Below, piece by piece: positions 4,194 to 57,845 of a stretch of DNA of 64,000 nucleotides. Origin of the DNA: Nitratireductor sp. (GTDB taxonomy: Bacteria; Pseudomonadota; Alphaproteobacteria; Rhizobiales; Rhizobiaceae); contig JAGRLL010000005.1 of assembly GCA_020441855.1 (NCBI GenBank), forward strand, positions 13,125-77,124, given 5' to 3'. The stretch's first letter is position 1. Each line of letters starts with the position of its first letter. The notes beneath the pieces were generated by a model. The model was not told the origin of the DNA, searched no databases, and saw only the letters and a list, made by a program, of their open reading frames with translations. The translations under genes were made by a program, and so were the position numbers.

Positions 4194-4221
4194 TTGCGGT
4201 CCTTGCGGCAGATCCATACGC

Positions 4222-8736: not shown

Positions 8737-8810
8737 TGGAGGCCTCGCCCGGAATCGAACCGGGATTGAAGGATTTGCAGTCCTCTGCGTAACCATTCCG
8801 CCACGAGGCC
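8737..8810 (-). tRNA. tRNA-Cys (anticodon GCA)
   Basis: The reverse complement folds as a cloverleaf: acceptor GGCCTCG/CGAGGCC, anticodon loop CTGCAAA, T-arm CCCGG-TTCGATT-CCGGG, encoded CCA. Confidence 0.9.
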
Positions 8811-11732: not shown

Positions 11733-11818
11733 TGGTGCGGGCACCGGGAATCGAACCCGGACGGCCGAAGGCCGAGGGATTTTAAGTCCCTTGCGTCTAC
11801 CAGTTCCGCCATGCCCGC
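11733..11818 (-). tRNA. tRNA-Leu (anticodon TAA)
   Basis: The reverse complement has acceptor GCGGGCA/TGCCCGC, anticodon loop CTTAAAA, long variable arm CGGCCTTCGGCCG, T-arm CCGGG-TTCGATT-CCCGG and an encoded CCA. Confidence 0.9.
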
Positions 11819-33100: not shown

Positions 33101-34720
33101 TGATCGATCACCACCCTCGAAATTTTCGGCCTTCTTGACCTTCTCCGGCGAGAATTCTGCCTGTGTCGGCTTCAAGGTGTCTGCGGCGACCGTCTCCGAG
33201 GTGTGGCCAACGCCCTTCCCGCCAAGGAAATTCACCATGGCACCGCGATGCTCGGCCTTGATCTGGGGCATGTCCACCCGAGGAATGCCAATCGTTCCGG
33301 ATTCCGGAGAAAATGACTCCCACTCCATGGTTTGCGTTGGAACTTCCCCTACCGGCTCTGCCGGCGGTGGTGCTTTATTCTCGCGCTGACCGACAATGGC
33401 CGATACGATATCGTCGGCAACTGGCCGCTCTGCTCCACGCGCTTCCTGTCCGCTGTTTGCCTGTCCTTCCGCAGGGGCGGGCAACAGATACGGATTTGCC
33501 ACGGGTGACGCAGCATCCTTACGAACAATGTCAGCGACAGCTTGCGCAGGCTGCTCAACAATGTTTTGCGTCGTGGCGGCGTCTGGTTTCTGTCGCGCAA
33601 CATTGTTCAGCGCCACATCGGTAGATGTTTGAACATTGTTTTCTTTCGATTGAGGCTTTGGTTGCGCATCGAGCACGCTTTGGTGCGGTCTCTCGCCGGC
33701 AGGACGGACGCGGTTCGTGGCCTCGTGCCAGAAGCCTGGCTCCTCCTGCCCGGTGGCGGGATCGATGATGCTGATTTCCTGCTCGCCCTGTAACGGCCTA
33801 GAAAAATCGTAGTTCTCTGTGGTCTCTGCTTGCTGCTCCGGCGCAGGGCGCACGACTTCGCCGTCGATCGTCACCGGCTCCGGGGCGGCCTGTTGCACTT
33901 CGGGGCCCGGCGGTAGACCGAGCGGTGGCAGGATTTCGCCGCTAAGTCCGTCCTGCGGCTGCTCGCCGGTTTCCTGACGTGGCGCATTTCCGGCAAGGCC
34001 CATCGTTCCGGAGATCGGCGCACCGAGGATTGCGCCAAGCAGTGCATTGTAGGCGACGTCGTCGGTTCTTCCGCGTTCGGTGTCATAGCCGGCGACATCC
34101 TTGGCGATGACGTTCTGACCGAATTGCTGGAAACCTTCCTGTGCCCCTTCTTCTGCGGCACCCTTGAGCGAGTCCTTGATGAACTTCGTAAAGGCGCTGG
34201 TCATGTCTCCCGCGATTTCGTGGGCGGCCGGCGCCGCGCGGCCCATGAACCTGCCGATCGGAATTGCCTCGGACAGACCCAGCGCAGAGTTGAGGCCGAA
34301 CGCCGTGCTTTCCTGATCCGGTGTAGCCCCGTGCTGCCTGGCCTCATCGAGGCCTGCGAGCCCTTGACTGGTTGATCCGAGCAATGCCGCCAGCCCTGTG
34401 GCAACCTTCGGACCAGCACCAACGATGCCACCGGGGGCCATGAACCCGGCCATTGAACCTGCCCCGGATGCCAGATCCCGCCCGATACCCTCATAAGACG
34501 GATCGATAGGAAATGCCTTGTCGATACCGCCCTCGATGCTTTCTCCGGCCCTGGTCAGCATATCGCTGCCAAACATCTCGCCAGATGCCCGCACCGGAGA
34601 AGCAATGACCTTTGCCAGGGAAGATACAAACCGGTTCGACAGGTCTGCGTCGCTCGTGATCGTCGGTTGCTGCTGCTGACCGAACAGATCGTCGAATTCC
34701 TGCTGGGTGATGACCGGCAT
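24146..34720 (-). CDS. 3524-aa polyvalent protein (ParB-like + N6-MTase + Sbno/SNF2-like helicase + RadC/JAB-like + C-terminal membrane module); DarB-like candidate anti-restriction virion protein
   Basis: One uninterrupted ORF. Motifs were verified at nucleotide level: NPPF at 31568-31579 and DEAH at 30224-30235. See the domain sub-features below. Confidence 0.85.
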   Translation of the reverse strand: MPVITQQEFDDLFGQQQQPTITSDADLSNRFVSSLAKVIASPVRASGEMFGSDMLTRAGESIEGGIDKAFPIDPSYEGIGRDLASGAGSMAGFMAPGGIVGAGPKVATGLAALLGSTSQGLAGLDEARQHGATPDQESTAFGLNSALGLSEAIPIGRFMGRAAPAAHEIAGDMTSAFTKFIKDSLKGAAEEGAQEGFQQFGQNVIAKDVAGYDTERGRTDDVAYNALLGAILGAPISGTMGLAGNAPRQETGEQPQDGLSGEILPPLGLPPGPEVQQAAPEPVTIDGEVVRPAPEQQAETTENYDFSRPLQGEQEISIIDPATGQEEPGFWHEATNRVRPAGERPHQSVLDAQPKPQSKENNVQTSTDVALNNVARQKPDAATTQNIVEQPAQAVADIVRKDAASPVANPYLLPAPAEGQANSGQEARGAERPVADDIVSAIVGQRENKAPPPAEPVGEVPTQTMEWESFSPESGTIGIPRVDMPQIKAEHRGAMVNFLGGKGVGHTSETVAADTLKPTQAEFSPEKVKKAENFEGGDRSILVSSDNHVVDGHHQWLAKRNAGEPVDIIRLGKPIKELLPIIGEFPSAENSDASARDVGGHEENKPHPGRGTPGSRTLAQLMAGVIPEGGQANPEEPIARKGPEATEPPPTAEVKPAFTPEQAEAHQWLKDNGHGELARIMEMDADRGYAGALDDAVRRAKVLREAKEDEANWPEPNDSGVYSGDDVKDGDRFAMKGAHAPIAEIELLAVAPNRWVARRAYHLPEIGGTNPLSGPPFFGERQEALDAAISSLRGKFADAVKGSGPKAQKEQAEAALKWLDSVAPVAGASVRNEVQEKPGKIDEPATGNETAPAGEGTPHVRAAREISDLFGDGLDMPTMKKRVRAIVERAYGGTVSQGAYATKDAYEALELGLNLYISRNPDQFNPANDHVNAFVKLTEMLDRLPRQRSRDADTDAFQQFSTPPQYGFVASWLANIKPGETVMEPSAGNGGIAVFAKNAGAKTIVNEIDARRVESLNAMGFDKVYSENAEQLNNILPKDVMADVVVMNPPFGNAGTRGMSEGADLTRKHIDQALKRLKPGGRLVAITGYTFHSGNRKVAKWFAETAKKYNIRAGVRVDGKEYGKFDTTYDTRLWVIDNTGPTQSRPMINQEAVALEPLFEALKDVHDTRSVAEQGPAESQGGSIAETSRRDAGPDTDARPATPELGGGERGNRADETGRSTVPDNGGGIAGQNAGSGADLAGDGRRERTERDRASAGRVDADRGGGASPRGDQRKDQDAGKRVTVEEAADVGKTDEELTESIFSNYRPQRARIKGAKPHPSKLVQSAAMGSVVPPKATYAPHLPDKTIDDGLLSDAQLENVVYAGQAHEEMLPAPAGEQAERRGYFIGDGTGVGKGRQISGIIMDNLAQGRKKHVWISEKWPLFNDAKRDMKGAGGDASLLISQKSVNRSKPIDAGEGVLFTTYSTLAKTFEKEDSNFAQLVNWLGKDFDGVIAFDEAHNMGNAVEMKGKRGKKKPSQAALAGVELQKRLPNARVVYVSATGATEVANLSYASRLGLWGFGTPFASRDKFIQEVTQGGVAAMELVARDLKALGSYQARSLSYDGVSYSKLEHALTAPQREIYDTLAKSWQSVLERVNEALKVSEGAANANAKSAALSAFWGSHQRFFNQVLTALQMPSVIRQAEKDLAAGDAVVMQIVNTNESSTERALAKIEDQSDLEDLDLTPREQLMAYVQNSFPVAQHESYVDEDGNQRSRPVTDSNGNPVENAEAVAMREDLLDRLSTIKVPDGPLETLIDHFGADKVAEVTGRSRRIVTKGGKRVIEKRGARANEAETDAFMSGDKDILIFSDAGGTGRSYHADLTQRNQKRRKHYLVQPGWRADKAVQGFGRTHRTAQASAPHYYTVSTDIQGHKRFVSSIARRLDQLGALTKGQRDAGSQGMFTALDNLESDYAKDAMRTMFYDIARGNVPGLDISQINSELGLKLINSETGAFNDTAIPEIPQFLNRILSMTIERQNRLFNEFVDRLQDNIEAAKQRGDADLGIETIRADKSEKKDDRVVFTDPKSGAETRLVEVELSHRNDPLTWEMVKDGFGGKKIEKWARNKRSGTLYGFVEAKPRTDRETGAIIDQFRRLSPLRTDLVDAKDVTGWGAAYEEVGEAEAKTDWDKRVEESPEYRNETVNMIVGAILPIWDRLPRGENMRIYRMKADDGEVLLGRVLRTGQVAEVLRNLGAEGKKIVMSPAEIRQRVLDGGVIQLSNGWRLKSSMVDGGARIEIVPKDAYSDRNAIQAAGAMFERIDYRGRYFVPLDPSRFETTMRNVLTGRDIVAVGSKGEDFEDAAGHYDGPGEAAKRHVVEAGKRDGVEHLVMIDGHGNRIGVNSGSKNNVQFTEEMLSQIRREDAHLIVHHNHPSSHSLSPADIMQLANPGIYAVYAHGHNGTSFRASLNRDVRESLMGYPARENLLWLRDAAERAYAVGYRILNQRTSSGKMKIEDAQAVDAHLMNLILRESGMIDYATELTTDLETDPEFVEAKKAAIEDIAKRMEQLINGGKTNIGRANRRTQPARHLGDLAEFLEGSRGSSRKHDQGRDDPKGARRDFEEEEGLRDGFFEDVGKFEEPSASLWHVPDRGTFQILRNANIKLAARFRAAFSAQAMQTAIDKWRVNFQDRFLPVLRVEEAIERFTGDQLPQGMKVYLAEEMYTGRVGSRLDRITRRYVEPIGYLMRESGLNQDDVGEYLYARHAQERNEHIASINPNFEDGGSGMSDAEARGILRDIKSSEQSGAYELIGKLVDRMMRESVRARVDAGLLSEQAAEAWQKYQHYVPLRGFEEVDEADPGIPNVGKGFTARGPESRRALGRESKAGDILATAFTVAQEAVIRGEKNRVVQRLFDLAKAHPNKDYWEINPVRMKQVFNRATGMVYSRAESPIAAGEADKTVSVKFKGVEHRIVINDERLREAIKRLNAEDLNGMLKFMIGFNRFLSTMNTSLNPEFLVSNAIRDLQTAGVHMATMDQKGLTKAVLKDYFGAMRGAWGGLRGKPLTTEWRKVFREFERSGGKVSFYKLDGIEDLRAKFEKISRQMSAKDYRKVWQGIKALGQVIEDMNLAVDNAVRLSLFKNLRERGVSVEDAASAAKNLTVNFNRRGQYATTMNALYLFYNAGVQGSAIMLKAMQHRRARHLAGAMVAGSAALTLLNALFLGEDDENGENEYAKIPEWEKQRNLVVMIPGKDDRGRQNYVKFPLPYGYNVFHTVGRKATEYAMGLSDGAVAMGDIAETFIDSFNPVGGSDSILKMLSPTITDPLVEINQNSDFAGRKIRPDRTKYDDTIPFSQDYYNSVSPLSRHLTAMLNEWTGGNEFKPGKVDLSPEWIDHVGKFIGGAAVSTWWRPVNTTSKLLRGEEINPNDIPFERRVHGRTGAFFDRDIFYSRVDEIEQAAAQTEGFAKKGDRASYDALDDKTKALGAMKTKGYRAMQSKLRDLRKKRNEIYAAKLDAATRSETLKRIEDEEMRIISAFNRAYLQTARRVDGN
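27371..27643 (-). other. RadC/JAB-like metalloprotease motif region (aa ~2360-2450)
   Basis: HHNHPSSHSLSPAD resembles the RadC HNHPSG..PS..D motif, with a spacer one residue shorter. Confidence 0.45.
28961..30703 (-). other. Strawberry-notch/SNF2-like helicase domain (aa ~1340-1920)
   Basis: Walker A GDGTGVGKGR, DEAH box, FSDAGGTGRSYH, QGFGRTHRTAQ (motif VI-like). Confidence 0.75.
31316..31858 (-). other. N6-adenine DNA methyltransferase domain (aa ~955-1135)
   Basis: Motif I VMEPSAGNGGIA and motif IV VVMNPPFGN. Confidence 0.8.
32996..33313 (-). other. ParB/Srx-like nuclease domain of the giant protein (aa ~470-575)
   Basis: LKPTQAEFSPEKV ... ILVSSDNHVVDGHHQW (DGHHR-type motif). Confidence 0.6.
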
Positions 34721-44448: not shown

Positions 44449-44780
44449 AGGACGTCCATCCCTACATCTCGTGCTGCTTGTTTGATCTGCTCGATGCTGC
44501 GTTTCTTCTGCGCAGCGGTGCGGACCGGTTGGTGTTTCTTTGGTCTCTCGTTTCCGAGCTCGACCAGGTCGTGGCGTCTGAGGTGATCGCGGTGTTTGGA
44601 CCGCGACGTGATCACCTCCCCGGTAACCATGGATTTGTACGGCTCGATGTCGCGGATCAGGCGCGGCGAGGGCAGATCGGAAGCATTTGCCCCGGCATCG
44701 GATCGGACCGCCTGCCGCCTCGCATAGACCTCGGGCGACACCCATTCCTTGGCGACCTTGTCGAATACGCTACGCGCCAT
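44445..44780 (-). CDS. Small basic head-module protein
   Basis: Lies between the portal and scaffold genes. Confidence 0.45.
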   Translation of the reverse strand: MARSVFDKVAKEWVSPEVYARRQAVRSDAGANASDLPSPRLIRDIEPYKSMVTGEVITSRSKHRDHLRRHDLVELGNERPKKHQPVRTAAQKKRSIEQIKQAARDVGMDVL

Positions 44781-46950
44781 TGCCGTTCCTCATCGATGCT
44801 GCAGCTTGTTCGCGGCGTTGGGCGGCGTCAGCAACGGCCTTGGCCGCCCCGATGGTCTGCGCCATGACATCAAGACTGCGATCCTTCTCCGCTTCCGCGG
44901 CGTCGAAGGCGCGCTGGCGCTCGTTCTCGTCGGCACTGGCTTTGACCTTGAGCAATTCGCGCTCCGTTGCCCCCTTCTCCCTGATCGCCGCGACTGCGGA
45001 CGGATCAGGCTGGCTGTTCTGCTGTTGTGGTGGAGGCGGTTGCTTCCATTCATCCAGAATGGCTTCGATCTCGCGGGCGCCCGGCAAGCCGCGAACCAGA
45101 AACATCACGATCTGCTTGAACAAATCGAACGGCATCTGTCCTGCCATGACCGCCGGGCCAAACGTCGAGATCGTTTCGGCCACTGCACGGATAGCCTCGA
45201 CGCGCTGCTGGCGATCGCGCTCCTGATCGATCTTGATCGTGGAATCGGTTTCGACCCTGATCCGATACCGCCTCACGGTGTCATCGCGGAGCACCGCGAA
45301 GATTTCTTCCCATGTCGGCTGGCTGCTGATCTCTTCGATCTTCCTGGCGGCGTCCGCGGCCTTGGCCTGATCCTGCCCGCCACCCGAAGCGATCAACATG
45401 ACCTGCACGCGCACGATCTCGACCTGACGTTCTTCGTCGTCGCGCGGCAGTTTGATCCCTGTAATGCGCTCAAGGGTCTCCACGGAATAGTGCTCGGCGA
45501 TGATCTCGCCCGCGATTGCGAGAAGATCGCGGGCAAAGTTCGAATGGTTCTCCTGGTGCGTTTCTAGTCTGATCGTGGCGAACTGGCCCTTGATCTTCTG
45601 GGCGCCGAGTGTTTCACGTGGATCAGATGATCCCCGGATGATATCGGCCATGCCGGAGATTTCGAACAATTCCTGCTTGGCCTGCTCCCTGGCCTCGTAC
45701 AGTGCCCGGATCGCTTCTGCGGTGGCCTGATTGGGAAGCCACTCAATCAGCTTCGATATCCCGCCCTTGTCCGCCCATGCCGCGAAGTCGGCAATCGCAA
45801 TCAGTTCGTTGTCGGCGCTGAACAATTGCTTGATGGTCTGCGATTCCTCGCCGGCATAGGCGCCGTTGACGCGCAGCGTGTTGACCAGCGAATAAATGCG
45901 CTTCGTGACCCGGTCGACCTCGGCGGCCTGGTCGCAATAGAGCCAGTACAGCGGCAGCGGGATCTTTGTTTCGTTCGATTCCACGGCCATGGCAGGTCGC
46001 GGGCCCGGGAAGAAGTCGCGCAGCCCAAGCGGGTCGGGAACGACATCGAGCGGGCCGTCTGCGTATCCCGGCGAGATATGCCAGACCAGACGCCGGGACT
46101 TGTCCCATATCTCCCAGACCTCTGCGCGCTTCCACGCCTCGGCGACGCTCTCAATATCGGCCTTCTTGACCGTTCCTTCGTCATCCGCCGATAGCAGTTC
46201 GGTGGTCAATTGGACCTTGACCGCCTTGTCCTTGCCGTAGCGCTTGATCAGCTTCTTGCGGCTCAATCTGGACCGGTAGGCAATCCAGCGCGTCGCCTCC
46301 CAGGTCTTGTCAACGCTCTCGAGATAGTCGTCGATGCCGTAGCGCTTGAACAACTGGCGCTGATTGATGATTTCGGCGATCTTCTCCCGTGCGGGTTCAT
46401 TCGCTTCGGTTTCAGCCGCCATCTTCTCGGGATTGGCGCCTTCCTCCTCTGGGTCGAAGCCCTCGTCGAGTTCCTCGTCGGTTTCGATCTCGTAGAACGC
46501 TCTCGCCACCCCCCTGCCGGGCAGCAAATAATCATGCCTGATCTTCTTCATCGTGCCGTGCAGGTCGGCATCCTCGGCGACGAAGATCAAAGCGCGCTCC
46601 ATGATTTCGGTGGCGACGCGGGCAACGACGTCATCGCCGGGAAAGCGACGCTCGCAAACCGGGGTCGGCGGGTTTGCATAAACCGCGCCCTTCATGGTCT
46701 CGGTGTTTGAATAGAGGATGTTCAGGCCTTCGACGTCCCTGTCGCCCGCAATCTCGGTTTCGATCTCGGAGGACTTGCGTTCATCGCGATAGCGTCGTTC
46801 GACGTTTTTCGCCTGCTTGATGAAGTGCTGGTAATGTTTCTTGGAATCGTCGAGTTCGCGCAGCCAGTATTTTGCCTGGGTCTTCGGCTCTGCCTGCTCC
46901 AGATCGGAGGCGAGCACATCGCTCTGCTGCTCGGTGCTGGCGTCAGCCAT
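44770..46950 (-). CDS. Portal protein
   Basis: 726 aa. Its start overlaps the terL stop, in the canonical position. Confidence 0.75.
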   Translation of the reverse strand: MADASTEQQSDVLASDLEQAEPKTQAKYWLRELDDSKKHYQHFIKQAKNVERRYRDERKSSEIETEIAGDRDVEGLNILYSNTETMKGAVYANPPTPVCERRFPGDDVVARVATEIMERALIFVAEDADLHGTMKKIRHDYLLPGRGVARAFYEIETDEELDEGFDPEEEGANPEKMAAETEANEPAREKIAEIINQRQLFKRYGIDDYLESVDKTWEATRWIAYRSRLSRKKLIKRYGKDKAVKVQLTTELLSADDEGTVKKADIESVAEAWKRAEVWEIWDKSRRLVWHISPGYADGPLDVVPDPLGLRDFFPGPRPAMAVESNETKIPLPLYWLYCDQAAEVDRVTKRIYSLVNTLRVNGAYAGEESQTIKQLFSADNELIAIADFAAWADKGGISKLIEWLPNQATAEAIRALYEAREQAKQELFEISGMADIIRGSSDPRETLGAQKIKGQFATIRLETHQENHSNFARDLLAIAGEIIAEHYSVETLERITGIKLPRDDEERQVEIVRVQVMLIASGGGQDQAKAADAARKIEEISSQPTWEEIFAVLRDDTVRRYRIRVETDSTIKIDQERDRQQRVEAIRAVAETISTFGPAVMAGQMPFDLFKQIVMFLVRGLPGAREIEAILDEWKQPPPPQQQNSQPDPSAVAAIREKGATERELLKVKASADENERQRAFDAAEAEKDRSLDVMAQTIGAAKAVADAAQRREQAAASMRNGNGA

Positions 46951-48500
46951 CAGATACCTCGATAGTCCTTGTTGGCACGCGCTCGACCTTGCTCATGGGC
47001 AATGACTTCATCGATCGAGGGGACGTGTCCGTAAGGTACGTCGCCGGGGTTGGGTGCTAATTTCCGCTGGATAGGCCGCGCCTGGCACATGTACCTGATC
47101 TCGTCTGCGGCGTGATCCTCGCCCTCGGTGTCAAGGTCCTCGGCGTTCTTGTCGTCGTGCTGGAGAACCGGAACGGTGCGGATTGCGTCCTTGCAGGTCG
47201 AAAAGAAATAGATCATCGGTCGGCCGGCATGGTCGCCGGCCTCATCGCCCATCATTCTGGACCGCATCTGCCCCCAGCCAGGTATGCGCCGATTGTCGGC
47301 CTTGCGAAGCTGGAACTTGCCGCGTTCATGGCGGCCACCTTTCCACATCTGCTCGGCAATTGACGGGCCACCTTCCTGGGCGAAGATCGAAGGATCGCAA
47401 ACCGTATAGGCAATGGTCTCGTCCGGCGGCGTCCGCGACACGATGCCCTTGCCGATCTCGAAATTGGTCAACTTGATGCCCTTGTTCGGCCCGGAAGCGC
47501 CGTACCATTCCCGGTAGCGGATCAGCGCGCCACGTGGATAGGACGGCCATTCCGTTGGAGGCTTGCCGGGGATTTCGACGGGATAGCCGTCAGACATCGC
47601 CCACCATCCCACGGAGAACGGCGAAGACGATCCCCAGTCGAAGGAACGGAACCTGGTCCAGCGCTTGGGAATCGCGTGCGGCGGGATGACAAGACGGCGA
47701 TCCGACCAGCAATCGAAGAATGCGCCCTCGATGATCGACCAGTCACCGTAAAGCCAGGCTTTGACGAGATGCGCCGAACCGGATTGAGACAGTCTTGCGA
47801 TGTAGAACGGATCGCTGGCCAGAAGGATCTTGTTGTCGGCGACTTTCGACGGGATGAAGATGCGTTCCAGCCACATCCCCGATTCCTGATCGAACTGGCG
47901 GATCGGTCGCATCCCGGCCGGCCACGGATCGATATAGCGTCGCTTCACCCAAAGATGGCCGGGCCCGCCGGGGTTTGCCGTCGCCCTGAACCCGCATGCC
48001 GAACTAGGGATATGCGCGCTTCGGATCGTGGCGAAAAGCTTCTGGATAGGCTCGAAGTTCGGGAACTGGGTCAATTCCTCGACATAGACCCTGGTATAGG
48101 AATGGCCCTGATAGGCCTGCGCGTCCTCGTCGCGGTCGAGATACCGGAATTTGATCCTCGCACCGTTCGCCATGCGAAAGGTCTTGGACTGGGCGTGGTA
48201 TTTCGCCCCCAGCGGGAGGAAAAGTTCCTTGGCCCGCTCGATGGTCTCGGCAAGGGCCTCCATGGTTCGACGAACCATGAGACCGTTGGCATGCTTTCCC
48301 CAGGAATCGGAGTGAATCAGCCAGTCGCCCAGCATGCCGTCGGTCTTGCCGCCGCCGCGCGCGCCGCCGAACATGACCTCGAACACGGGACAGGAGATCA
48401 GAAGCGCTTGTGGTCCCGGCTGGGGCGCCCAGACCACATGATCGGTGGGTTGGAGAAGACGCGGCCCGCCGTTGTGGCCTATGCCGGGCTGGGCGAGCAT
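46950..48500 (-). CDS. Terminase large subunit
   Basis: Walker A FGGARGGGKTDG, with a C-terminal nuclease-like region containing DHAADE. Confidence 0.85.
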   Translation of the reverse strand: MLAQPGIGHNGGPRLLQPTDHVVWAPQPGPQALLISCPVFEVMFGGARGGGKTDGMLGDWLIHSDSWGKHANGLMVRRTMEALAETIERAKELFLPLGAKYHAQSKTFRMANGARIKFRYLDRDEDAQAYQGHSYTRVYVEELTQFPNFEPIQKLFATIRSAHIPSSACGFRATANPGGPGHLWVKRRYIDPWPAGMRPIRQFDQESGMWLERIFIPSKVADNKILLASDPFYIARLSQSGSAHLVKAWLYGDWSIIEGAFFDCWSDRRLVIPPHAIPKRWTRFRSFDWGSSSPFSVGWWAMSDGYPVEIPGKPPTEWPSYPRGALIRYREWYGASGPNKGIKLTNFEIGKGIVSRTPPDETIAYTVCDPSIFAQEGGPSIAEQMWKGGRHERGKFQLRKADNRRIPGWGQMRSRMMGDEAGDHAGRPMIYFFSTCKDAIRTVPVLQHDDKNAEDLDTEGEDHAADEIRYMCQARPIQRKLAPNPGDVPYGHVPSIDEVIAHEQGRARANKDYRGI

Positions 48501-48510
48501 TGCGTCAAAA

Positions 48511-48714
48511 TCAAGCCGCAGTCAGCGCCGCGGGATCGAACCAGCGTTCCATGCCCCTATCGTCGACAACACGTTCGACGCGGCGCTTCTGGTGGTTGCT
48601 GAACGCATCAACAACGCCCTCGGCGATGTGGTTGTTCTTCTTGCGGAACGTCACCGGCCGGGACGGATCGATCGTACGGGTATGCGATTTCTGCCAGTTC
48701 GTCTTCATGGTCAA
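48511..48714 (-). CDS. Small basic hypothetical protein
   Basis: AAGGA SD upstream. Ends 10 nt before terL. Confidence 0.45.
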   Translation of the reverse strand: MTMKTNWQKSHTRTIDPSRPVTFRKKNNHIAEGVVDAFSNHQKRRVERVVDDRGMERWFDPAALTAA

Positions 48715-48821
48715 TGGTCCTTGTGTTGCGATGACGCCTATTCATCAGTGACTTCGGCGTCAGTGGCGTTTTTCTTGATTGTTTCGACGGCGGAGAACGC
48801 TTGGCATGTGAACCCTTCCAT

Positions 48822-49232
48822 CTAGCTCGCGAGCCGACGCCGGAGTTCCAGCGGAACAACGGCGACCGGGTTTTCGAGAACGGCGTTGAGGTTAGCCAGG
48901 CCAACCATCGCCCCTTGCGCGAGACCCGGCGAATTGAAGACCGCGAACTTTCGGTTCATCTCCGGGGAACAGAGGCGGTCGAGTTCCGTGGCATTGTGAT
49001 CCCCGGCGATCATGAGACCGTTATCGGCAAGGATGCGCCGGAAGATTTGCGCTGACTTCTCCGGATCACCACTGGTCACCGCCGGCACCGGGTTAGGCGC
49101 GTTGAACGACAGCACAACAGAACGCACCACGAGTTCTTCGTCATCCTCGTTCACACCTTCATGAAACAGCGCGAGGAGATGGAACCGGAAGTTCACTGCG
49201 GTCTGTGGCGGTGTCTGCTGGACGTTCTGCAT
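48822..49232 (-). CDS. Hypothetical protein (accessory islet)
   Basis: GAGGAA SD within the repeated 25-nt element upstream. Confidence 0.5.
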   Translation of the reverse strand: MQNVQQTPPQTAVNFRFHLLALFHEGVNEDDEELVVRSVVLSFNAPNPVPAVTSGDPEKSAQIFRRILADNGLMIAGDHNATELDRLCSPEMNRKFAVFNSPGLAQGAMVGLANLNAVLENPVAVVPLELRRRLAS

Positions 49233-49236
49233 CGGA

Positions 49237-49261
49237 AATTCCTCAATGATTTCTCGTGCGC
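49237..49261 (-). repeat. 25-nt exact repeat, copy A (intergenic; carries the SD of gene 48822..49232)
   Basis: aattcctcaatgatttctcgtgcgc, identical to 56402-56426. Similarity extends to about 40 nt with small indels. Confidence 0.9.
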
Positions 49262-49278
49262 GTGCAGGTGCGCGAGGA

Positions 49279-49698
49279 TCAGGCCTCTACCAGCACCCAG
49301 TCGTCCGCGAGCATATCGGCCTGTGAGGCCAGCCACGGCACGCATTTGCCCTCGGCATCTTTCATGTCGATGTGCGGGCGATAGTCGATCTGCGTACCCT
49401 CGGAGTAGATGCCGAGCAGCGGCGGTCGATTGACGATGAAGGTTGACCCTGCGACGAGGTAGAGGAACATGCCCTTGCCGTTCCAACCGGCGCGCGCGAC
49501 CCTGTGACCGTCCTTGAGCGCTTGCAGCGCGTGGCCGAAGCTCATCGCATCGATCGACTGATAGGCAGCCTCGAACACTGCCTTGGGTGACCACGAGGTA
49601 TAGCCGTCGGCGTATTTGACGGCATAGCCGTCTTCGCCATCGGGCGACTTGCTCGGCCATGCGGTGATGCGTTTCGTGCCATAATAGTCCTTGGTCAT
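49279..49698 (-). CDS. DUF2829 domain protein (Tad2-like candidate immune-signal sponge)
   Basis: FGHALQALKDGHRVARAGWNGKGMFLYL...PWLASQADMLADDWVLV is the DUF2829 signature. N-terminal GYAVKYADGYTSWSPKAVFEAAY extension. Confidence 0.8.
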   Translation of the reverse strand: MTKDYYGTKRITAWPSKSPDGEDGYAVKYADGYTSWSPKAVFEAAYQSIDAMSFGHALQALKDGHRVARAGWNGKGMFLYLVAGSTFIVNRPPLLGIYSEGTQIDYRPHIDMKDAEGKCVPWLASQADMLADDWVLVEA

Positions 49699-49711: not shown

Positions 49712-50470
49712 CTATTCCTCGACGTTGATTGGGTCCTCGAGTCCGTGCTCGACGATCCAGTTGTTGGTCTTCCTCATGTCTTCGATGTTGCGCTGGCGGC
49801 CGGCGGACGGATCGACCGGGCCCGCCTGGACCATTCCGGGGACCGGAACCGGGACCACGACATAGCTCGCGGCCTTCTGCAGGTTGTCCTTTTCGTAGCC
49901 GCCCAGCACCTTGAGCAGTTTGTCAATGGCGCCATCCTTGGAGCGGACCTTGAACTTGGTCTTGACCACTTCCTTGCGCGCGTCGACGATTTCACCACTC
50001 TCTGGCGCCATCATCTGCGTCGGCTTCACCGACACCGTGGTTTGCTCGATCTCCTCGATCGACATCCGCGCCGATTTCGGGATTTGATGGATATCCAGCA
50101 GGCTTCCCGTTTCGGCGTCGAAGAACTCCAACGGATCGGTGTAGACCACCGATTTCAGTTCCTTGACGAGCTCGTGAACGGTCAGGCTCTCGGCCTGCGC
50201 CGTGGCCTCCTGCTTCATTCTGATCGCGGCCGCCACTGCCGGCTTGTAGAGTGTATGGTTCTCGTCGAGCCAGGCCGGCGCGTTCTTCTTCGCGGTCTCG
50301 GCGGTGTATCCCGCCGCCCTTGCGGCGTCGAATATCGTGCTCTCCGTCATGTAGGCCATGACGAACCTGGTCTCGCGCTGCGACAGACCGGTCGACAGGA
50401 TAACGTCGTCGACCTCGGCCATGACCTTGGCGGCGTATTCGTCCTCAGGCGATTGGGCTTGCTGATCCAT
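49712..50470 (-). CDS. Terminase small subunit
   Basis: LSQRETRFVMAYMTESTIFDAARAAGYTAETAKKNAPAWL is the Terminase_2-type HTH. Confidence 0.75.
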   Translation of the reverse strand: MDQQAQSPEDEYAAKVMAEVDDVILSTGLSQRETRFVMAYMTESTIFDAARAAGYTAETAKKNAPAWLDENHTLYKPAVAAAIRMKQEATAQAESLTVHELVKELKSVVYTDPLEFFDAETGSLLDIHQIPKSARMSIEEIEQTTVSVKPTQMMAPESGEIVDARKEVVKTKFKVRSKDGAIDKLLKVLGGYEKDNLQKAASYVVVPVPVPGMVQAGPVDPSAGRQRNIEDMRKTNNWIVEHGLEDPINVEE

Positions 50471-50503: not shown

Positions 50504-50701
50504 CTAATTTCGGTCGCGCGCTTTTTCCGGTTTGTCGAGTATCAACCCACGTTCAAACATCATCCTATCGTAGACCTCCTTAATGTCGTGAGGTCTTAAG
50601 GAGCCATTTGATACGCGCATGACTTCTGCCACGAACTCAGAGCACACTAACTGCCACCATTCTTCGTACGCAACGAGAACGGTACCAACAGCAACAATCA
50701 T
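50504..50701 (-). CDS. Small hypothetical protein in a low-GC patch
   Basis: Internal ATG (MIVAVGTVLV..) of listed ORF 50504..50833. Start uncertain. Confidence 0.3.
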   Translation of the reverse strand: MIVAVGTVLVAYEEWWQLVCSEFVAEVMRVSNGSLRPHDIKEVYDRMMFERGLILDKPEKARDRN

Positions 50702-50751
50702 GCGTTCGGTAGCCCCGGCTGTGGCGTATGGAATAATCGTTATCTGCTTCT

Positions 50752-51435
50752 TCAACTCGCGAACTCCATCTCGATGTGCTTCGGCACCATGCAGCCGGCC
50801 TTCCCCGGCTTTGGACCGTAATAGGCCAGCCATCTGCCATGATCGCGAAGCGTCTTCACGCGCTGGCGCCAGACATCGTCTGGTATCGGAGCATGGGCAG
50901 TCCTGTTGATACCCGTTCCTGTGCTCGACGGGGCATCGTCTTGAGACGTGGCGCTTGCCGTTGGCTCGATGTCCTCAGCAGCATTCGGCGGTTCGCGAAA
51001 TCCGGCGTCAACAGCAAGGTCGTCAAACACAGGACTGTCCCGGTCCTGTTTCACAGGCCGATCGGTCGGGTTCTGCATTTTCAGGTCAGGCTCGCTCTCG
51101 ACGATGATCCTGTACCCAACTGGCAGTTCGGCTTCGTCGAAGTGTTCCGGTGCCGGGCGAGCAGCTTTCTGGTCGATACGGAACCCGGCGACGAGGATGA
51201 ATTCGTCGCGCGGGACCAGATACCCGGCATTGCATAGCAGGCTCAGGCACTCTCTGACGTCGGCTACGGCGTGCCCCGGGCGGCAGGCAATCGCGATTTC
51301 TGTTTCGTCTGCCTTGCAAATTCCGTGGTCGTCGACGTGGCACAGCAGCGCGAGATAGAGCAACTGCGCGGCATCAGGCATTTCGATGAATCTGGGATGC
51401 GTCAGGAGTTTGTGTCGAAGGGCTCTGTTCTTCAT
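50752..51435 (-). CDS. Hypothetical protein with N-terminal winged-helix-like region
   Basis: ATG 51435 overlaps the upstream stop (ATGA). Confidence 0.45.
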   Translation of the reverse strand: MKNRALRHKLLTHPRFIEMPDAAQLLYLALLCHVDDHGICKADETEIAIACRPGHAVADVRECLSLLCNAGYLVPRDEFILVAGFRIDQKAARPAPEHFDEAELPVGYRIIVESEPDLKMQNPTDRPVKQDRDSPVFDDLAVDAGFREPPNAAEDIEPTASATSQDDAPSSTGTGINRTAHAPIPDDVWRQRVKTLRDHGRWLAYYGPKPGKAGCMVPKHIEMEFAS

Positions 51436-52057: not shown

Positions 52058-52801
52058 TCAGGCCAAACCGGCAGTGCCGCGACCAACATCGCCGCCGCGC
52101 GGGCGGCTTTGCCCGGCGCGACCGCCGCAACCGACAATGGTCGGCACGACGACGGCGTTGTAGTCCTTCTTGCTGGCCGTCACGGTGTGGAGCGGATCAC
52201 CGGCCGAGCGGTTGGCGCCGCCCTGCTGCGCATAAGTCACGAAGAACGGCTCCGCCGCATTGACCACATAGCGCATAACGCCCGCCGCGATCCGCTTCAT
52301 CGTGTTGTCGGCCAGCGGGCGCACGGCGCGCACGCCGTACTTCGCCATGATCTCGTCGGAGGTGTCGAAGATCGACGGGCACGGGATCGACCAGTCGATG
52401 ATCTCGGCGGCGGTGCGCCATGGTTTCAGTTCGCCGGCCTTGACCGCTTCCGACTTCGGGTCGCCGTGCGTCGGCGCCGGCCAGACCACGGGCTTGCCAT
52501 CGCGGCGCATCACGATGAAGAGCCGCTTGCGGATCGTCGGCGCGCCACCGCGGGCCTTGGAGAAATGCCGGCAATCGGGTGAAGCCCACAGCAGCCCAAC
52601 CTTTCTGCCTCTTGTGTGCGTCTCGATGTTGACCTTCCAGACGTTCTCCTCGAGGTGGAGCGTGTCGGGATGGTTCGCGGCGTGCATCGCCAGTGCGAAA
52701 GGGTTGTGATTGATGGCAATGTCCGGCGAGCGGCCAAGCGCTTCCATTATGCCTGTCGAGGCACCGCCGCCGCCCGCGAAACTGTCGATGATCATGTCCA
52801 T
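52058..52801 (-). CDS. DNA (cytosine-5) methyltransferase, probably degraded (internal deletion plus C-terminal truncation)
   Basis: Motif I DSFAGGGG and motif IV ASPDCRHFS are followed after only 9 aa by APTIRKRLF (motif VIII-like). No motif VI ENV and no motif X. Confidence 0.6.
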   Translation of the reverse strand: MDMIIDSFAGGGGASTGIMEALGRSPDIAINHNPFALAMHAANHPDTLHLEENVWKVNIETHTRGRKVGLLWASPDCRHFSKARGGAPTIRKRLFIVMRRDGKPVVWPAPTHGDPKSEAVKAGELKPWRTAAEIIDWSIPCPSIFDTSDEIMAKYGVRAVRPLADNTMKRIAAGVMRYVVNAAEPFFVTYAQQGGANRSAGDPLHTVTASKKDYNAVVVPTIVGCGGRAGQSRPRGGDVGRGTAGLA

Positions 52802-53226
52802 TATTCCGCCGCCTCCTGCTTGGGGTATCCCTCGGGCCAACGCTGTGGAGTGACGAAGCGTTTAAGACGGACGATCTGATCCACCCTTGCCTGTCCGTGG
52901 TGATTTCTCTGGTAGCCAAGCCATGCCGACCATTCAGGCCGCCCGGGTCTCACGACAAACCAGCCGTCGCCATCGATCTCAGGCGGGTTGCAACTGAATT
53001 CGGCAAAAGTTCCGCCGGTCAGGAACCCGATGACGCTGATCGCTCTGCCCTGCCGGCGCCGCGCCTCGCAATAGCGACGCACAGCTTCCGGAAACTGGTT
53101 GACTAGACCAGGATAAGCCGCGGCAACACGCTGGTAGCGGGCGAAGATCGACGAGCGCCTTGCACTGATCCTGAATTCTTCAGGCCACGTCCGCCAGAAC
53201 GCTTCGAAGGGCTGGTCGAGGTTCAT
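52801..53226 (-). CDS. Hypothetical protein
   Basis: ATGA overlap upstream and 1-nt overlap downstream. Confidence 0.45.
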   Translation of the reverse strand: MNLDQPFEAFWRTWPEEFRISARRSSIFARYQRVAAAYPGLVNQFPEAVRRYCEARRRQGRAISVIGFLTGGTFAEFSCNPPEIDGDGWFVVRPGRPEWSAWLGYQRNHHGQARVDQIVRLKRFVTPQRWPEGYPKQEAAE

Positions 53227-54332: not shown

Positions 54333-54736
54333 TCAGCCGGCTCCCTGCATGCGCTGACAGTCGCTAGAGAAACCGAATGCTTTCTGGTGTTGTGTCTGGT
54401 ATATTCGGTGGTGACGTAGCGTGTTCCGTCTGAACGGGTTTCGATGGTTGCGCCGGCATAGGGCTTCGAAGGAACGGAAGCCCCGCCATTGCGCTCCCTG
54501 CTGGCCGCTGCGGCATCGTCAGGAGCGGCGAAGGTGTTTGCCCGCCTAAGCGCCTTGGCAGCGCGTTCGCGCGATGTGCGGCGCTGCACGTCGCGCATGT
54601 GGGCGAGATAGTTTACATCGGTCAGGGCCTTCACCGCGTTTGGATGGCAACGCATCAGTTTGGCTATTGCGCCAGCCGGCATACCGGCTTCGCTCAGATC
54701 GCGGATGAAGGCCTGCTTTTCCGGGGAGAGGTTCAT
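54329..54736 (-). CDS. HTH domain protein
   Basis: FIRDLSEAGMPAGAIAKLMRCHPNAVK. ATG 54736 overlaps the MTase stop. Confidence 0.5.
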   Translation of the reverse strand: MNLSPEKQAFIRDLSEAGMPAGAIAKLMRCHPNAVKALTDVNYLAHMRDVQRRTSRERAAKALRRANTFAAPDDAAAASRERNGGASVPSKPYAGATIETRSDGTRYVTTEYTRHNTRKHSVSLATVSACREPAE

Positions 54737-55938
54737 GTCTGGCCTCCCCATTCGAGAAGCGGGGCGGGTTCCGACGGTTCCGCGCCCTTGCGCTTGATGA
54801 TCTCCCGCGCGCGCTCATCAGGGCCGGACAGGCAGAGGCGCATGCGCTCCGCGATATCATCCTGATATTCAAGTTCGCGCTCGATCAGGATGGCGTTCAT
54901 GCCTTCGCGCCATGCCGCCTCGCCCGTGGTTCCTGTCCCGGCGAACGGATCAAGCACGGTGCCGCCGGGAGGCGTGACAAGACGCACCAGGTATTGCATC
55001 AGATCGACCGGCTTCACGGTCGGGTGCCTGGAACCTATCCTGTCGTTGGAGTCGGCCTTGGCTTGGTAAAAGAACCTGGCTGCCGAGCCGGCGTCGCCTC
55101 TTGGTTCTACCGTCGGTCTCGGGCCGTAGTCGCCATAGACCGCAGTTCCGGTCTTCGGCCTGAAGGTGTCGTTGACTTCGCGCTGCGCACCCGGTGCATC
55201 TGGAAACGCTGCCAGCACTTCTGCGCTGCCGTCATGGATTAGGTTTGCCGGCCACCTCCCTTTTCCATAGTCAACGCGTTCCATGGGGCCCATCTTTCCG
55301 TAGATATCGCTATCAACTTTTCGGCCATTGTTGCGCGCTCCATCTGTACCGACCCTGCACCCGTCGATATTGAGCGCTCCGGTTCCCCATTTCAGGATGT
55401 TTTCGGTGCCGGACAGGCCCTTCTCGAAAGGCTTCTGCCCCATGTAGATCGGTTCAATTGCCGGCTTGAGCGCTTGTCCGCCATAGCGGAATCCGTCATA
55501 GCCTTCAGCCTTGATCCGGGTCGCTTTCGGGAATCCGCTGCCAAAAATCCAACCGATGAAGGGATGTGTAATAAACCCGGCATCCTCGATGGCGACGGAC
55601 ATCCGTCCGAAGCCGCGCGTCGAGGCAAAGGCCAAGAGATATCCGCCGGGTTTCAGGACGCGGAGACATTCCCGCCAGACATCGGGACGAAAGGCGATAT
55701 CGCCGCCATCCCAAGTCCGGCCCATGAAACCGGTTGACGCCCGCTTGAATGCGCCGGTTTGACCTTCCTTGGCCTCGGCGGCGTTGTCGCCACCAAACCG
55801 CTTGACGATGCTGGTGAGATGGTAAGGCGGGTCTGTGACCACGCTGTCCAAACTGTTCTCCGGCAGCGCCAACAGGACGTCGAGGCAGTTGCCCGGATAG
55901 AGCGTCACCCTGCCGTCGAGGAAGGAGATCGGCTCCAT
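54733..55938 (-). CDS. DNA methyltransferase, beta-class N6-adenine/N4-cytosine
   Basis: Motif IV VVTDPPYHL precedes motif I VLDPFAGTGTTGEAA (beta order). Also RHPTVKPVDL. Confidence 0.85.
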   Translation of the reverse strand: MEPISFLDGRVTLYPGNCLDVLLALPENSLDSVVTDPPYHLTSIVKRFGGDNAAEAKEGQTGAFKRASTGFMGRTWDGGDIAFRPDVWRECLRVLKPGGYLLAFASTRGFGRMSVAIEDAGFITHPFIGWIFGSGFPKATRIKAEGYDGFRYGGQALKPAIEPIYMGQKPFEKGLSGTENILKWGTGALNIDGCRVGTDGARNNGRKVDSDIYGKMGPMERVDYGKGRWPANLIHDGSAEVLAAFPDAPGAQREVNDTFRPKTGTAVYGDYGPRPTVEPRGDAGSAARFFYQAKADSNDRIGSRHPTVKPVDLMQYLVRLVTPPGGTVLDPFAGTGTTGEAAWREGMNAILIERELEYQDDIAERMRLCLSGPDERAREIIKRKGAEPSEPAPLLEWGGQT

Positions 55939-56732
55939 CACTCCTCCTCCATCCATTCCGGCTTCTTGATCCGCCGGTCCATGAAGGCAGGAATGTCAGG
56001 CATTTCGAGCGGTGCGACAGGCCGTGTGGGTTCCCGGCCCGCCGCTCCATTCGTTGCTACTGTCGAGTCTTCGGACGGAACGGACACGGCTTCGCTTTGA
56101 CCGCTATCCATTTCGTCGGGGGCGTTTTCTACTTCATGGGATTCCTCCTGGTTGCCATCCGAAGGCTTGGCGGTTGCTCCATCGGCAATCATGCCATCGT
56201 CTTCGGTGGTGGGGTCATCCGCCGTTTCTGGCGACGGAATTTCGTCTGAGAGCGGCGCGGCGGAGCGACCTTCATCGGCGACCGGTTCATCACCGGCCAT
56301 TGCCTCGGCATCGTCTCCGCCGCCCATGCTGCTCTGCTGGGTATCGGTGAATTCTCCGGTCTCGGGGTCATGAGCCGGCATTTCGGTTGCTTCCGAGCCG
56401 GAATTCCTCAATGATTTCTCGTGCGCAGGCGCGGGACGCGCGCTAGGCTCGTCAAAGTCACCGCCAGCCATGCCAAGCGCGTGGCGATAAAGGTCGCGAA
56501 TTGCGTCCTGCTCCTGACGCTCGACCTTCTTGCCGGGGTTCTCGTCTTCGGCGTCCAGTGCCGCCTTCTCGCGGAACACAGCGCGCATGGCTTTGGTGTC
56601 GAGGCCGTTTGACTTCGCCTCGGCAAACAGCTCCTTGGAATCTTCAGCGAGAACCTTCTTGTCTTCCTCAATACGCTGCCATCGCTCGAAGTAAGAGCGG
56701 ATCACGTTGGAATTGTCTCCGATGCCTGTCAT
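55938..56732 (-). CDS. GapR/DUF2312-like DNA-binding protein with ~165-aa acidic C-terminal extension
   Basis: aa 10-90 align by eye to Caulobacter GapR (FERWQRIEEDKK...FAEAKSNGLDTKAMR...ERQEQDAIRDLYRHALG). Confidence 0.8.
   Translation of the reverse strand: MTGIGDNSNVIRSYFERWQRIEEDKKVLAEDSKELFAEAKSNGLDTKAMRAVFREKAALDAEDENPGKKVERQEQDAIRDLYRHALGMAGGDFDEPSARPAPAHEKSLRNSGSEATEMPAHDPETGEFTDTQQSSMGGGDDAEAMAGDEPVADEGRSAAPLSDEIPSPETADDPTTEDDGMIADGATAKPSDGNQEESHEVENAPDEMDSGQSEAVSVPSEDSTVATNGAAGREPTRPVAPLEMPDIPAFMDRRIKKPEWMEEE
56402..56426 (-). repeat. 25-nt exact repeat, copy B (inside the GapR-like ORF at the domain boundary)
   Basis: Identical to 49237-49261. Confidence 0.9.
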
Positions 56733-56735
56733 CAC

Positions 56736-57845
56736 TCAGACCCTCATCGGCATCTGGACGCAGATCAGTTCGTCGGCGTCGCCGGTGATCAGTGCCGGCT
56801 CGCCGGCATTCTGCCCGGCGCTCGTCGCCGCAAACGTCACGGTCTCGCTGGCCTTGAACGCCGACAGGACTTCGATGAGGTATCGCGGATTGAAACCGAC
56901 CTCGAAATCGGCTGGCGTCTGGGCGTCCATTGTTTCGGTAAAGGCCTGCAAGCCGTCGACCCGGCCGGTGAGTTCAAGTTTCCCGGCCTTGCCGGTGATC
57001 TTGACCGCCCTGCCACGCACGTCCTGCACCGCCACAACACGCCTGAGAACGGCGAGTATCTTGCGCCGGTCGACGACAAGGTATGGATCGGCGTTCTGTG
57101 GCACCACGCGTCGGTAGTCAGGATAGGTTCCGGCGATCGTTTTCGACCGGATCGTGAGCCCGTCGAATTCGAACGCGGCCTTGTCGTTCTCCGCGTCGAT
57201 GCAGGCCCGGTTCGGTTCGGGTTTCCTTTCGACAAGAAACCCGACAAGCTTCCTCGGCAGGATCGTCCCGGAAGCGCCTTCGATGACGAAGGGTAGCTTT
57301 CGCATCGCCAGCCGGTGCCCGTCGGTTGCGACGGCCCACATCTCATCCTTGTCCGGCTCCTTGAGCAGGGCGATGCCGTTGAGATAGTACCGGGTCTCCT
57401 CGGTCGACACCGCGAACATGACCTCGCGTAATATGGCGACCAGGCCGGCGTTGCCGAGGGCGACATAGTCCTTTTTCTTCGGCCGCCAGTTCGTCAGGAT
57501 CTCGGGAAAGTCCGTTGTCGGCAAAGAGGCCATGCGATATTCGGCGCCGTTGAACTTCGCCGTTGCGACGCGCTCGTTCTCATCCTCGGAAAGCACGACC
57601 TCGTCACCGGCGGGCGTCAGAGCCATGAGCCGTGACAGCACCGCAAAATCGATTGTGGCAGAGCCGGTTTGCTCGCCGATCAACGGAAGCTTGACGTCGA
57701 CCTCCATGTCGAGATTGGTCCCGGTGATAGTTCCATTTTCGAACTTCACCATGCCGAGAATGGGGATCGTGTTCCGTTTCTCGACTACCTTGTTCAGCAC
57801 CCGAAGGGCTGAATGCATATGGCCTGCGGTCGTTTCCAGTCTCAT
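56736..57845 (-). CDS. dnaN: DNA polymerase III beta sliding clamp (phage-encoded)
   Basis: ALRVLNKVVEKRNTIPILGMVKFE.. N-terminus. 369 aa three-domain length. GFNPRYLIEVL motif. Confidence 0.85.
   Translation of the reverse strand: MRLETTAGHMHSALRVLNKVVEKRNTIPILGMVKFENGTITGTNLDMEVDVKLPLIGEQTGSATIDFAVLSRLMALTPAGDEVVLSEDENERVATAKFNGAEYRMASLPTTDFPEILTNWRPKKKDYVALGNAGLVAILREVMFAVSTEETRYYLNGIALLKEPDKDEMWAVATDGHRLAMRKLPFVIEGASGTILPRKLVGFLVERKPEPNRACIDAENDKAAFEFDGLTIRSKTIAGTYPDYRRVVPQNADPYLVVDRRKILAVLRRVVAVQDVRGRAVKITGKAGKLELTGRVDGLQAFTETMDAQTPADFEVGFNPRYLIEVLSAFKASETVTFAATSAGQNAGEPALITGDADELICVQMPMRV

Follow-up and report, generated by a model that had tools for sequence, protein, structure and literature searches.

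Between the genes for the small (terS) and large (terL) terminase subunits of a Nitratireductor sp. prophage lie three small open reading frames (ORFs), the first of which encodes a protein of the Tad2 (DUF2829) family. The region is part of a 64,000-nucleotide (nt) stretch of DNA (assembly GCA_020441855.1, contig JAGRLL010000005.1, positions 13,125 to 77,124), hereafter the window, whose own coordinates are used throughout. The gene in question (49279-49698, minus strand) codes for 139 amino acids (aa) and is followed by two further small ORFs, orf136 and orf65. The explanation that we favour, and consider likely, is that a Tad2 sponge gene sits as mobile cargo in the terS-terL slot and would share this slot with two genuine orphan genes. 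The protein is an unremarkable addition to a known family, and the two orphans are uninformative. A preliminary description of this DNA had placed five ORFs, from terS to terL, in this region and had read the peptide ALKDGHRVARAGWNGKGMF...WLASQADMLADDW as a DUF2829 signature; the ORF list gives the same coordinates, on the minus strand, and the peptide is present in the 49279-49698 translation.

The family named in that description was borne out by a hidden Markov model search. PF11195 matched residues 52-137 of the protein with its full profile (positions 1-73 of 73; E=6.3e-28; 97.6 bits, the cutoff being 25 bits). Since Pfam names this domain 'Tad2-like', the assignment is already reachable by standard annotation. 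Among the sequences of the Protein Data Bank (PDB), six solved Tad2/AcrIIA7 proteins were matched by phmmer with E values from 4.6e-20 to 1.6e-13 (ModTad2, 4.6e-20; HgmTad2/AcrIIA7, 2.1e-17; SptTad2, 7.8e-16; SPO1 Tad2, 1.5e-13). The AlphaFold2 (AF2) model of the protein, built with 53 homologues, had a predicted local distance difference test score (pLDDT) of 95.6 and a predicted template modelling score (pTM) of 0.81. When this predicted structure was used as the Foldseek query against the PDB, the top 24 matches were all Tad2 structures (E 4e-08 to 5e-05), with template modelling (TM) scores of 0.85-0.92 to ModTad2, normalised to the target, and with ~40% identity to every characterised Tad2. 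The protein is acidic (isoelectric point, pI, 5.5), as known sponges are (PMC13299392). Judged by profile, PDB sequence matches and predicted fold, it is a clear Tad2 family member, and we regard the family call as solid. In size it departs from all solved Tad2 members, which are single-domain proteins of ~85-105 aa; multi-domain Tad2-like proteins are common in BFVD.

The protein has two domains, a feature that goes beyond the preliminary description. Residues 52-139 and the stop codon (49279-49545, minus strand) make up the Tad2 domain, predicted to be signal-sequestering, and residues 1-51 (49546-49698, minus strand) form an N-terminal module outside PF11195. Across the 53 homologues this module is as conserved as the Tad2 domain, with G24, Y29, S35, W36 and P38 invariant, and in the AF2 model it folds into four beta strands and a helix (pLDDT 93-97). 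No PDB sequence matched it, and Foldseek returned no significant match, the Tudor/KOW-like matches having E > 1. Two origins were considered and rejected: a duplication of the C-terminal half of Tad2 had an hhalign probability of <1%, and the 'head' of AcrIIA7, which in pdAcrIIA7 consists of two alpha helices, differs from the beta-rich module and showed no sequence match to it.

The full architecture corresponds to a separate PHROG, phrog_872 (E=1.9e-44). At E <=1e-10 there were 7114 database matches, and the best 120 of these 7114 were nearly all full-length. Full-length matches in phage genomes numbered 93, including Ruegeria phage 45A6, N4-like Klebsiella and E. coli phages and the P22-like Kapi1, and at least 568 matches were found in representative bacterial genomes of many phyla. 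The N4-like region with full-length homologues is a described anti-signalling hotspot that contains Tad2 homologues. From these sequence matches it can be deduced that the 139-aa protein belongs to a large, abundant and widespread two-domain subfamily, whose sole unexplained feature is the N-terminal module. The module might provide a further ligand site, bind a protein target, or regulate the Tad2 core.

Since Tad2 proteins bind several different signals, the ligand is not fixed by family membership. Thoeris (types I, II and IV), CBASS and Pycsar all have inhibitors among the Tad2 homologues, whose ligands comprise 3'-cyclic ADP-ribose (3'cADPR), His-ADP-ribose (His-ADPR), N7-cADPR, cyclic dinucleotides and cyclic uridine or cytidine monophosphate (cUMP/cCMP), with specificities scattered on the family tree (PMC12393519). 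The preliminary description had presented DUF2829 as the family of Tad2, which sequesters the glycocyclic ADP-ribose (gcADPR) signals of Thoeris. That is one of several activities of the family (PMC12393519), and with ~40% identity to all characterised Tad2s the transfer of a ligand from the nearest neighbour is weak; what holds of the statement is that the pocket residues appear to lean to gcADPR.

This leaning was read from the gcADPR contacts of HgmTad2 (PMC10680739), which were mapped onto the protein through a HMMER alignment. Nine of the twelve contact residues are identical (W72, N73, G74, M112, V120, W122, L123, S125 and D128), so that the pocket motifs W72-N73-G74 and W122-L123-x-S125-x-x-D128 are conserved; W72, W122, S125 and D128 are invariant among the 53 subfamily members. 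The clusters that were mutated in HgmTad2 are mostly kept (W21/N22, and S90 and D93 of S90/T92/D93). The C-terminal pocket segment reads WLASQADMLA in the 139-aa protein, WLASQTDMLA in HgmTad2 and WTPSVSDILA in ModTad2, and the subfamily consensus, WLASQTDxLADDW, agrees with HgmTad2 WLASQTDMLANDW. The cyclic-dinucleotide (CDN) pocket of the HgmTad2 type is absent: R31 is replaced by A83, N85 aligns to a gap, and only F70, with Y106 at its position, has a similar counterpart. The beta2-beta5 insertion has ~25 residues (84-108), against 41 in HgmTad2 and 35-41 in the CDN-binding subtype, and in its length and its YRP motif it resembles ModTad2, not HgmTad2. It is unusually conserved, with G84, S85, F87, R91, P93 and L94 invariant in the subfamily, which hints at a second functional surface. 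We would therefore rank gcADPR/3'cADPR first, because the canonical pocket is HgmTad2-like, and ModTad2-like His-ADPR/cUMP second, because of the length, YRP motif and conservation of the insertion.

We propose that the C-terminal domain assembles into the Tad2 homotetramer, and that the pockets between protomers would bind and sequester a host TIR-derived ADP-ribose-type immune signal, our best guess being the 3'cADPR/gcADPR of type I Thoeris. The effector would then never be activated, and the phage would escape abortive infection. Since only 13 nt separate the gene from terS and no promoter-like site precedes it, co-transcription with the late packaging genes is probable; the level of the sponge would rise with the appearance of structural proteins, and such co-expression would synchronise the sponge with signal production. 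Alternatively, the gene could be expressed in the lysogen, as is Kapi1_043, a proposed Tad2-like gene whose expression in the lysogen exceeds that of every other Kapi1 gene (PMC12922286).

Several observations weigh against this reading. HgmTad2 and the 139-aa protein differ at three pocket positions (A78 to D114, T82 to K118 and T92 to A127), and the T92 of HgmTad2 hydrogen-bonds the adenine; the subfamily consensus at the A127 position is T, as in HgmTad2. In both sequence and fold the best match is ModTad2, a binder of His-ADPR and cUMP that leaves type I Thoeris uninhibited. The N-terminal module is carried by no characterised (solved) Tad2, our literature search found no report of an assayed two-domain member, and a different N-terminal extension, that of pdAcrIIA7, blocks RNA binding by the core and anti-CRISPR activity (PMC13133391). 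The host flank of the window shows no Thoeris, CBASS or Pycsar system and contains only glycosyltransferases, a desaturase, tRNAs and RtcB. Finally, comparison is uninformative for the two orphans, every copy found being at least 99.95% identical.

It is possible, although we hold it for clearly less probable than the type I Thoeris ligand, that the protein is a sponge for another signal. As in ModTad2, the canonical pocket could bind His-ADPR (type II Thoeris) or N7-cADPR (type IV), and/or a second pocket in the insertion could bind cUMP/cCMP (Pycsar). Besides the rank of ModTad2 as best match, the ModTad2-like and unusually conserved insertion is in line with this, the beta2-beta5 region forms a second pocket in both ModTad2 and HgmTad2, and within the family specificities are broad and lie scattered across the phylogeny. 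However, the pocket segment is nearer to that of the gcADPR binder HgmTad2 than to that of ModTad2, and the equal distance from all characterised Tad2s limits what the rank of ModTad2 can say.

The homology to AcrIIA7/HgmTad2 also raises the question of an anti-CRISPR that acts by binding tracrRNA, as reported for AcrIIA7 (PMC13133391). Two of the three lysines essential for RNA binding are kept (K58 and K71 of pdAcrIIA7, K11 and K24 of HgmTad2, K62 and K75 here). Nevertheless, the protein departs from AcrIIA7 in each feature that goes with tracrRNA binding, namely the three lysines, a positively charged groove and the absence of an N-terminal head: the third lysine (K66 of pdAcrIIA7) is A70, the low pI is at odds with the groove, and a beta-rich N-terminal extension is present, RNA binding by pdAcrIIA7 having been lost through an N-terminal extension. 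In other hands the anti-Cas9 activity of HgmTad2 was not reproduced. Alphaproteobacteria, to our knowledge, do not typically carry type II-A Cas9 systems. We consider an anti-CRISPR role highly improbable and keep to the signal sponge as the preferred reading of the 139-aa protein.

The second part of the favoured explanation concerns the slot. The three ORFs separate terS (49712-50470, minus strand; 252 aa), which bounds the islet upstream, from terL (46950-48500, minus strand; 516 aa), which bounds it downstream, as the preliminary description had it; both terminase genes were confirmed by Pfam and PHROG profiles (PF03592 Terminase_2, E=1.5e-13, and phrog_51, 1.1e-11, for terS; phrog_2, 8.8e-34, and PF03237, 9e-07, for terL). 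The order on the minus strand is terS, the 139-aa DUF2829 gene, orf136, orf65, terL and portal (44770-46950; 726 aa; phrog_12082, E=2.1e-152, and tblastn to annotated phage genes). From terS through terL the genes are co-oriented and tightly packed, with intergenic gaps of 13, 46, 107 and 10 nt.

That terS and terL are normally adjacent, as the preliminary description assumed, applies to phage Pam5, in which terS, terL and portal are contiguous, so that the three ORFs are extra relative to Pam5. By tblastn, terL is 47-51% identical to the annotated terL of Pam5 (47%) and of MW202489.1 (51%, the closest terL relative); in the latter, three genes, one of them annotated as a phoD-like phosphatase (2598-5561 of the locus), lie between terL and portal. 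The assumption fails for the distantly related Ruegeria phage 45A6, whose portal belongs to the same family (phrog_12082): its order is terS (phrog_309, 6.5e-25), two unrelated small ORFs, terL (phrog_38, 1.3e-82), portal and a two-domain Tad2-like gene. At a further locus, L074, terL is followed by a homologous portal and then by the Tad2-like gene. Genes 18.5/18.7 of T7 are a classical precedent for a terS-terL split. The split is thus real, not very unusual and has precedents, and in this lineage the packaging module as a rule admits cargo, at other junctions too.

Other close homologues of the 139-aa gene were found amid small ORFs at ~4 kb from, and downstream of, a terminase-like gene, within a replication module, next to an integrase, in the interval separating lysis genes from terS, and in the N4-like region ahead of the virion RNA polymerase (vRNAP) gene. 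Such variable positions support the reading of the Tad2-like gene as mobile cargo. Flanking repeats that would mark a mobile insertion were looked for around it, and only short, chance-level repeats were seen. We then surveyed two genes on each side of the Tad2-like gene in 55 prophage loci (208 proteins). The neighbours included portals, terminases, capsid proteins, holins/lysins, integrases, RecT/RusA and methylases, none of them in more than three loci, and no recurrent partner or known anti-defence Pfam family was present. The Tad2-like gene thus looks like cargo that moves alone and preferentially settles at the boundaries of modules. An anti-defence island would consist of recurrent syntenic counter-defence genes; here there is one known family only, in an arrangement found in one phage, and the neighbourhood holds no functional information on orf136 or orf65.

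Two of the homologous loci deserve mention for the genes next to the sponge gene. In the Alphaproteobacteria metagenome-assembled genome (MAG) GCA_001767925.1 (L018, 5700-6438), a 71-aa Tad2-like gene and a two-domain 145-aa Tad2-like gene stand in tandem, near a holin-like gene and an integrase, and the two sponges may cover different signals. In Ruegeria phage 45A6 (L001, 6445-6723), the Tad2-like gene is directly followed by that for a 92-aa protein matching phrog_419 and a 'nucleotide pyrophosphohydrolase' PHROG (1e-14), another small nucleotide-handling protein adjoining a sponge.

The two ORFs between the 139-aa gene and terL were examined by codon usage, with a log-likelihood ratio (LLR) trained on other genes of the element. 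The first, orf136 (48822-49232, minus strand; 136 aa, as first described; pI 5.3), is preceded by a GAGGAA Shine-Dalgarno motif 8-13 nt upstream, and its coding LLR of 0.297 was reached by none of 335 off-frame windows. The second, orf65 (48511-48708, minus strand), had been given 67 aa. It more likely starts at ATG 48708 (65 aa; pI 10.5) than at TTG 48714 (67 aa), because an AAGGA ribosome-binding site lies 9-13 nt upstream of the ATG and gene callers chose this start in ten assemblies. Its coding LLR of 0.344 was reached by 2 of 430 off-frame windows. Among true in-frame windows orf136 and orf65 stand at the 25th and 35th percentile, and their GC content at third codon positions (GC3; 0.72-0.76) equals that of neighbouring genes. 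Both were gene-called in ten independent assemblies; at NCBI they are the hypothetical proteins KDJ90_00435 and KDJ90_00430, from a Nitratireductor sp. MAG. By codon statistics, therefore, both look like genuine genes. The 107-nt spacer between them (48715-48821, minus strand; sequence reading and ORF list) contains a 27-codon ATG ORF (48738-48821, minus strand) that starts right after the orf136 stop, with a weakly positive codon score; it is too short to judge. The stop codon of orf65 lies 10 nt before the terL ATG. From its small size and strongly basic character, nucleic-acid binding is our best guess for its role.

Homologues of either protein were sought widely. Among 5.8 billion clusters (word-indexed search), orf136 matched only itself, and orf65 only itself and a truncated fragment. 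An exhaustive HMMER search of 1.84 billion representatives gave three matches to orf136 (E 7e-13 to 1e-08), to VCBS-like, TPR and Big_2 repeat proteins; they were rejected because different short parts of the query were matched 7-12 times, the scores being sums over repeats. With orf136, neither tblastn against 50,697 phage genomes nor a PDB sequence search gave a match, and its single-sequence AF2 model (pLDDT 41.5) is unusable. For both ORFs, Pfam, PHROGs (one match at E=0.02), NCBIfam and PADLOC contained no family, in agreement with the preliminary description, and local tblastn in 94 related loci gave no match. These searches indicate that orf136 and orf65 are strict, lineage-specific orphans. 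The five-gene arrangement is present, identical, in ten metagenome contigs of 99.95-100% identity, so that dN/dS carries no signal and selection is not measurable.

It is very unlikely that orf136 and/or orf65 are chance ORFs, not expressed, in a GC-rich spacer. The lack of a homologue and of sequence variation by which selection could be tested would be expected of chance ORFs, and shadow ORFs of >100 aa overlap the region in this 60% GC DNA, so that length means little. Against this, the codon scores are in the range of real genes and above 335 of 335 and 428 of 430 off-frame windows, GC3 is like that of the neighbours, the Shine-Dalgarno motifs are correctly spaced, and ~1.2 kb of non-coding DNA within a packaging operon would itself be odd.

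The preliminary description had also proposed, from the tendency of anti-defence genes to cluster, that the two neighbours of the sponge gene are candidates for new anti-defence functions. There is a precedent in N4-like phages, where the inhibitors Bes1, Bes2 and RyR-Tad were found beside sponge genes (bioRxiv 10.64898/2026.06.04.730250), and orf136 and orf65 are small, real-looking genes in the same operon as the sponge gene and are strain-specific, as fast-evolving counter-defence genes often are. However, they come without homology, usable structure or conserved synteny, the survey of 55 loci brought up neither a recurrent neighbour nor a known anti-defence Pfam within two genes, and small orphan ORFs are the phage norm, which makes adjacency weak. 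Their codon usage matches the phage backbone and gives no sign of recent import. Nothing computed supports the proposal, and we consider it unlikely that the two ORFs are new anti-defence proteins in an islet with the sponge. The joint proposition, that the N-terminal module defines a functionally distinct class of sponge and that at least one of the orphans is a new counter-defence protein acting with it, we regard as quite unlikely.

Some or all genes of the islet could instead serve packaging or morphogenesis; orf65, for example, might be a small basic DNA-binding terminase accessory. With a pI of 10.5, orf65 ends just ahead of terL, and translational coupling of orf65 and terL is suggested because the terL start has no obvious ribosome-binding site of its own. 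Furthermore, the Tad2-like gene recurs within the packaging module of the portal lineage (after portal, in Ruegeria 45A6 and L074), and Ruegeria 45A6 likewise has two small ORFs between terS and terL. These ORFs are not homologous to orf136 or orf65, though, Pam5 packages with adjacent terS and terL, close Tad2-like homologues also occur in replication modules and next to integrases, and the sponge function of the Tad2 domain has been demonstrated in several homologues. A packaging role for the islet is thus rather improbable, and cargo beside two orphan genes remains the explanation that we prefer. At the 3' end of orf65, before the terL start, we noted a terminator-like hairpin (48516-48533, minus strand; CCGCGG...CTGCGG, then CTTGATTTTG). 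The regional count of terminators is at chance level; for promoters and terminators alike, counts in the region were at or below shuffle expectation.

Most of the window is taken up by a prophage or phage genome, with host-like glycosyltransferase, desaturase and tRNA genes to the left. In the window map, lysis genes lie at ~17.5 kb, structural and packaging genes at 35-50 kb, and replication and methylase genes at 50-58 kb. A megablast of 10 kb against phage genomes gave no match, and when terL was used to scan collections of genome, viral and metagenome contigs, no close phage relative above 49% terL identity appeared. Just upstream of terS, a 109-aa ORF (50504-50833, minus strand) has a GC of 0.52 and a GC3 of 0.54, against ~0.60 and 0.7-0.8 in its neighbours, a codon-usage score near zero, and no family in Pfam, PHROGs or PADLOC; either recent acquisition or a wrong gene call may account for it. 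In the structural region, a single 3524-aa ORF (24146-34720, minus strand), which served as codon-usage training data, probably encodes a giant virion or tail-associated protein. Also on the minus strand are two DNA methyltransferase genes (52058-52840 and 54733-55956), one C5-cytosine-like (PADLOC MTase_II, 5e-13, with no Pfam match at 1e-3) and one N6/N4 (PF01555, 9e-27), a gene for a GapR-like protein (55938-56735) and one for the phage's own DNA polymerase III beta clamp (56736-57845), which are possible anti-restriction and replication accessories. The interval from the host-like genes to the prophage lysis region holds genes for tRNA-Cys (8737-8810), tRNA-Leu (11733-11818) and an RtcB RNA ligase (12416-13795).

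If the sponge acts as proposed, a prophage of Nitratireductor, an alphaproteobacterium, would join the hosts in which Thoeris-type signalling is countered. The finding points to a very abundant two-domain branch of Tad2, present in prophages of many phyla, in N4-like coliphages and in P22-like prophages, and at stake is the trustworthiness of thousands of 'Tad2-like' annotations in this branch. As for orf136 and orf65, nothing lifts them above the background of phage orphan genes.

Among known systems, the N4-like anti-signalling hotspot (bioRxiv 10.64898/2026.06.04.730250) is likewise a compact locus in which a sponge stands beside small family-less genes, some of them proven new inhibitors. 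It differs in being syntenic across a phage family and in holding several known sponge families, whereas the islet described here is found in one phage and the neighbours have no homologues.

The solved sponges resemble the C-terminal domain to different degrees. ModTad2/MoTad2 of a Myroides odoratus prophage (PDB 8V3E, 9EIB), at 40% identity, shares the short beta2-beta5 insertion with YRP and an identical GWNGKGMF motif; it is an 88-aa single domain, without the 51-residue module, and differs in the pocket segment. HgmTad2/AcrIIA7 (PDB 8KBI-8KBM) and SptTad2 (8WJD) are 42-43% identical, with a nearly identical WLASQ(T/A)DMLA segment. HgmTad2 differs in its 41-residue insertion, which forms a cGG/cGAMP pocket (R31, S47, F70, N85), and in lacking the N-terminal module. 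SPO1 Tad2 (gp34.65; PDB 8SME/8SMF/8SMG), the founding gcADPR sponge, has the same fold (TM ~0.8, normalised to the target), ~40% identity and an insertion of 24 residues, against ~25 here; it is an 89-aa single domain and a weaker match (1.5e-13).

The closest likeness is to the two-domain DUF2829 proteins of PHROG 872, which align over residues 1-138. Ruegeria phage 45A6 ANH49101.1 is 60% identical, Klebsiella phage KP8 AVJ48974.1 43% and Kapi1_043 of an Escherichia phage ~41%. Members of this PHROG are annotated only as hypothetical, DUF2829 or anti-CRISPR proteins, and they differ from the 139-aa protein in gene position, their genes following portal, preceding the vRNAP gene, or separating lysis genes from terS.

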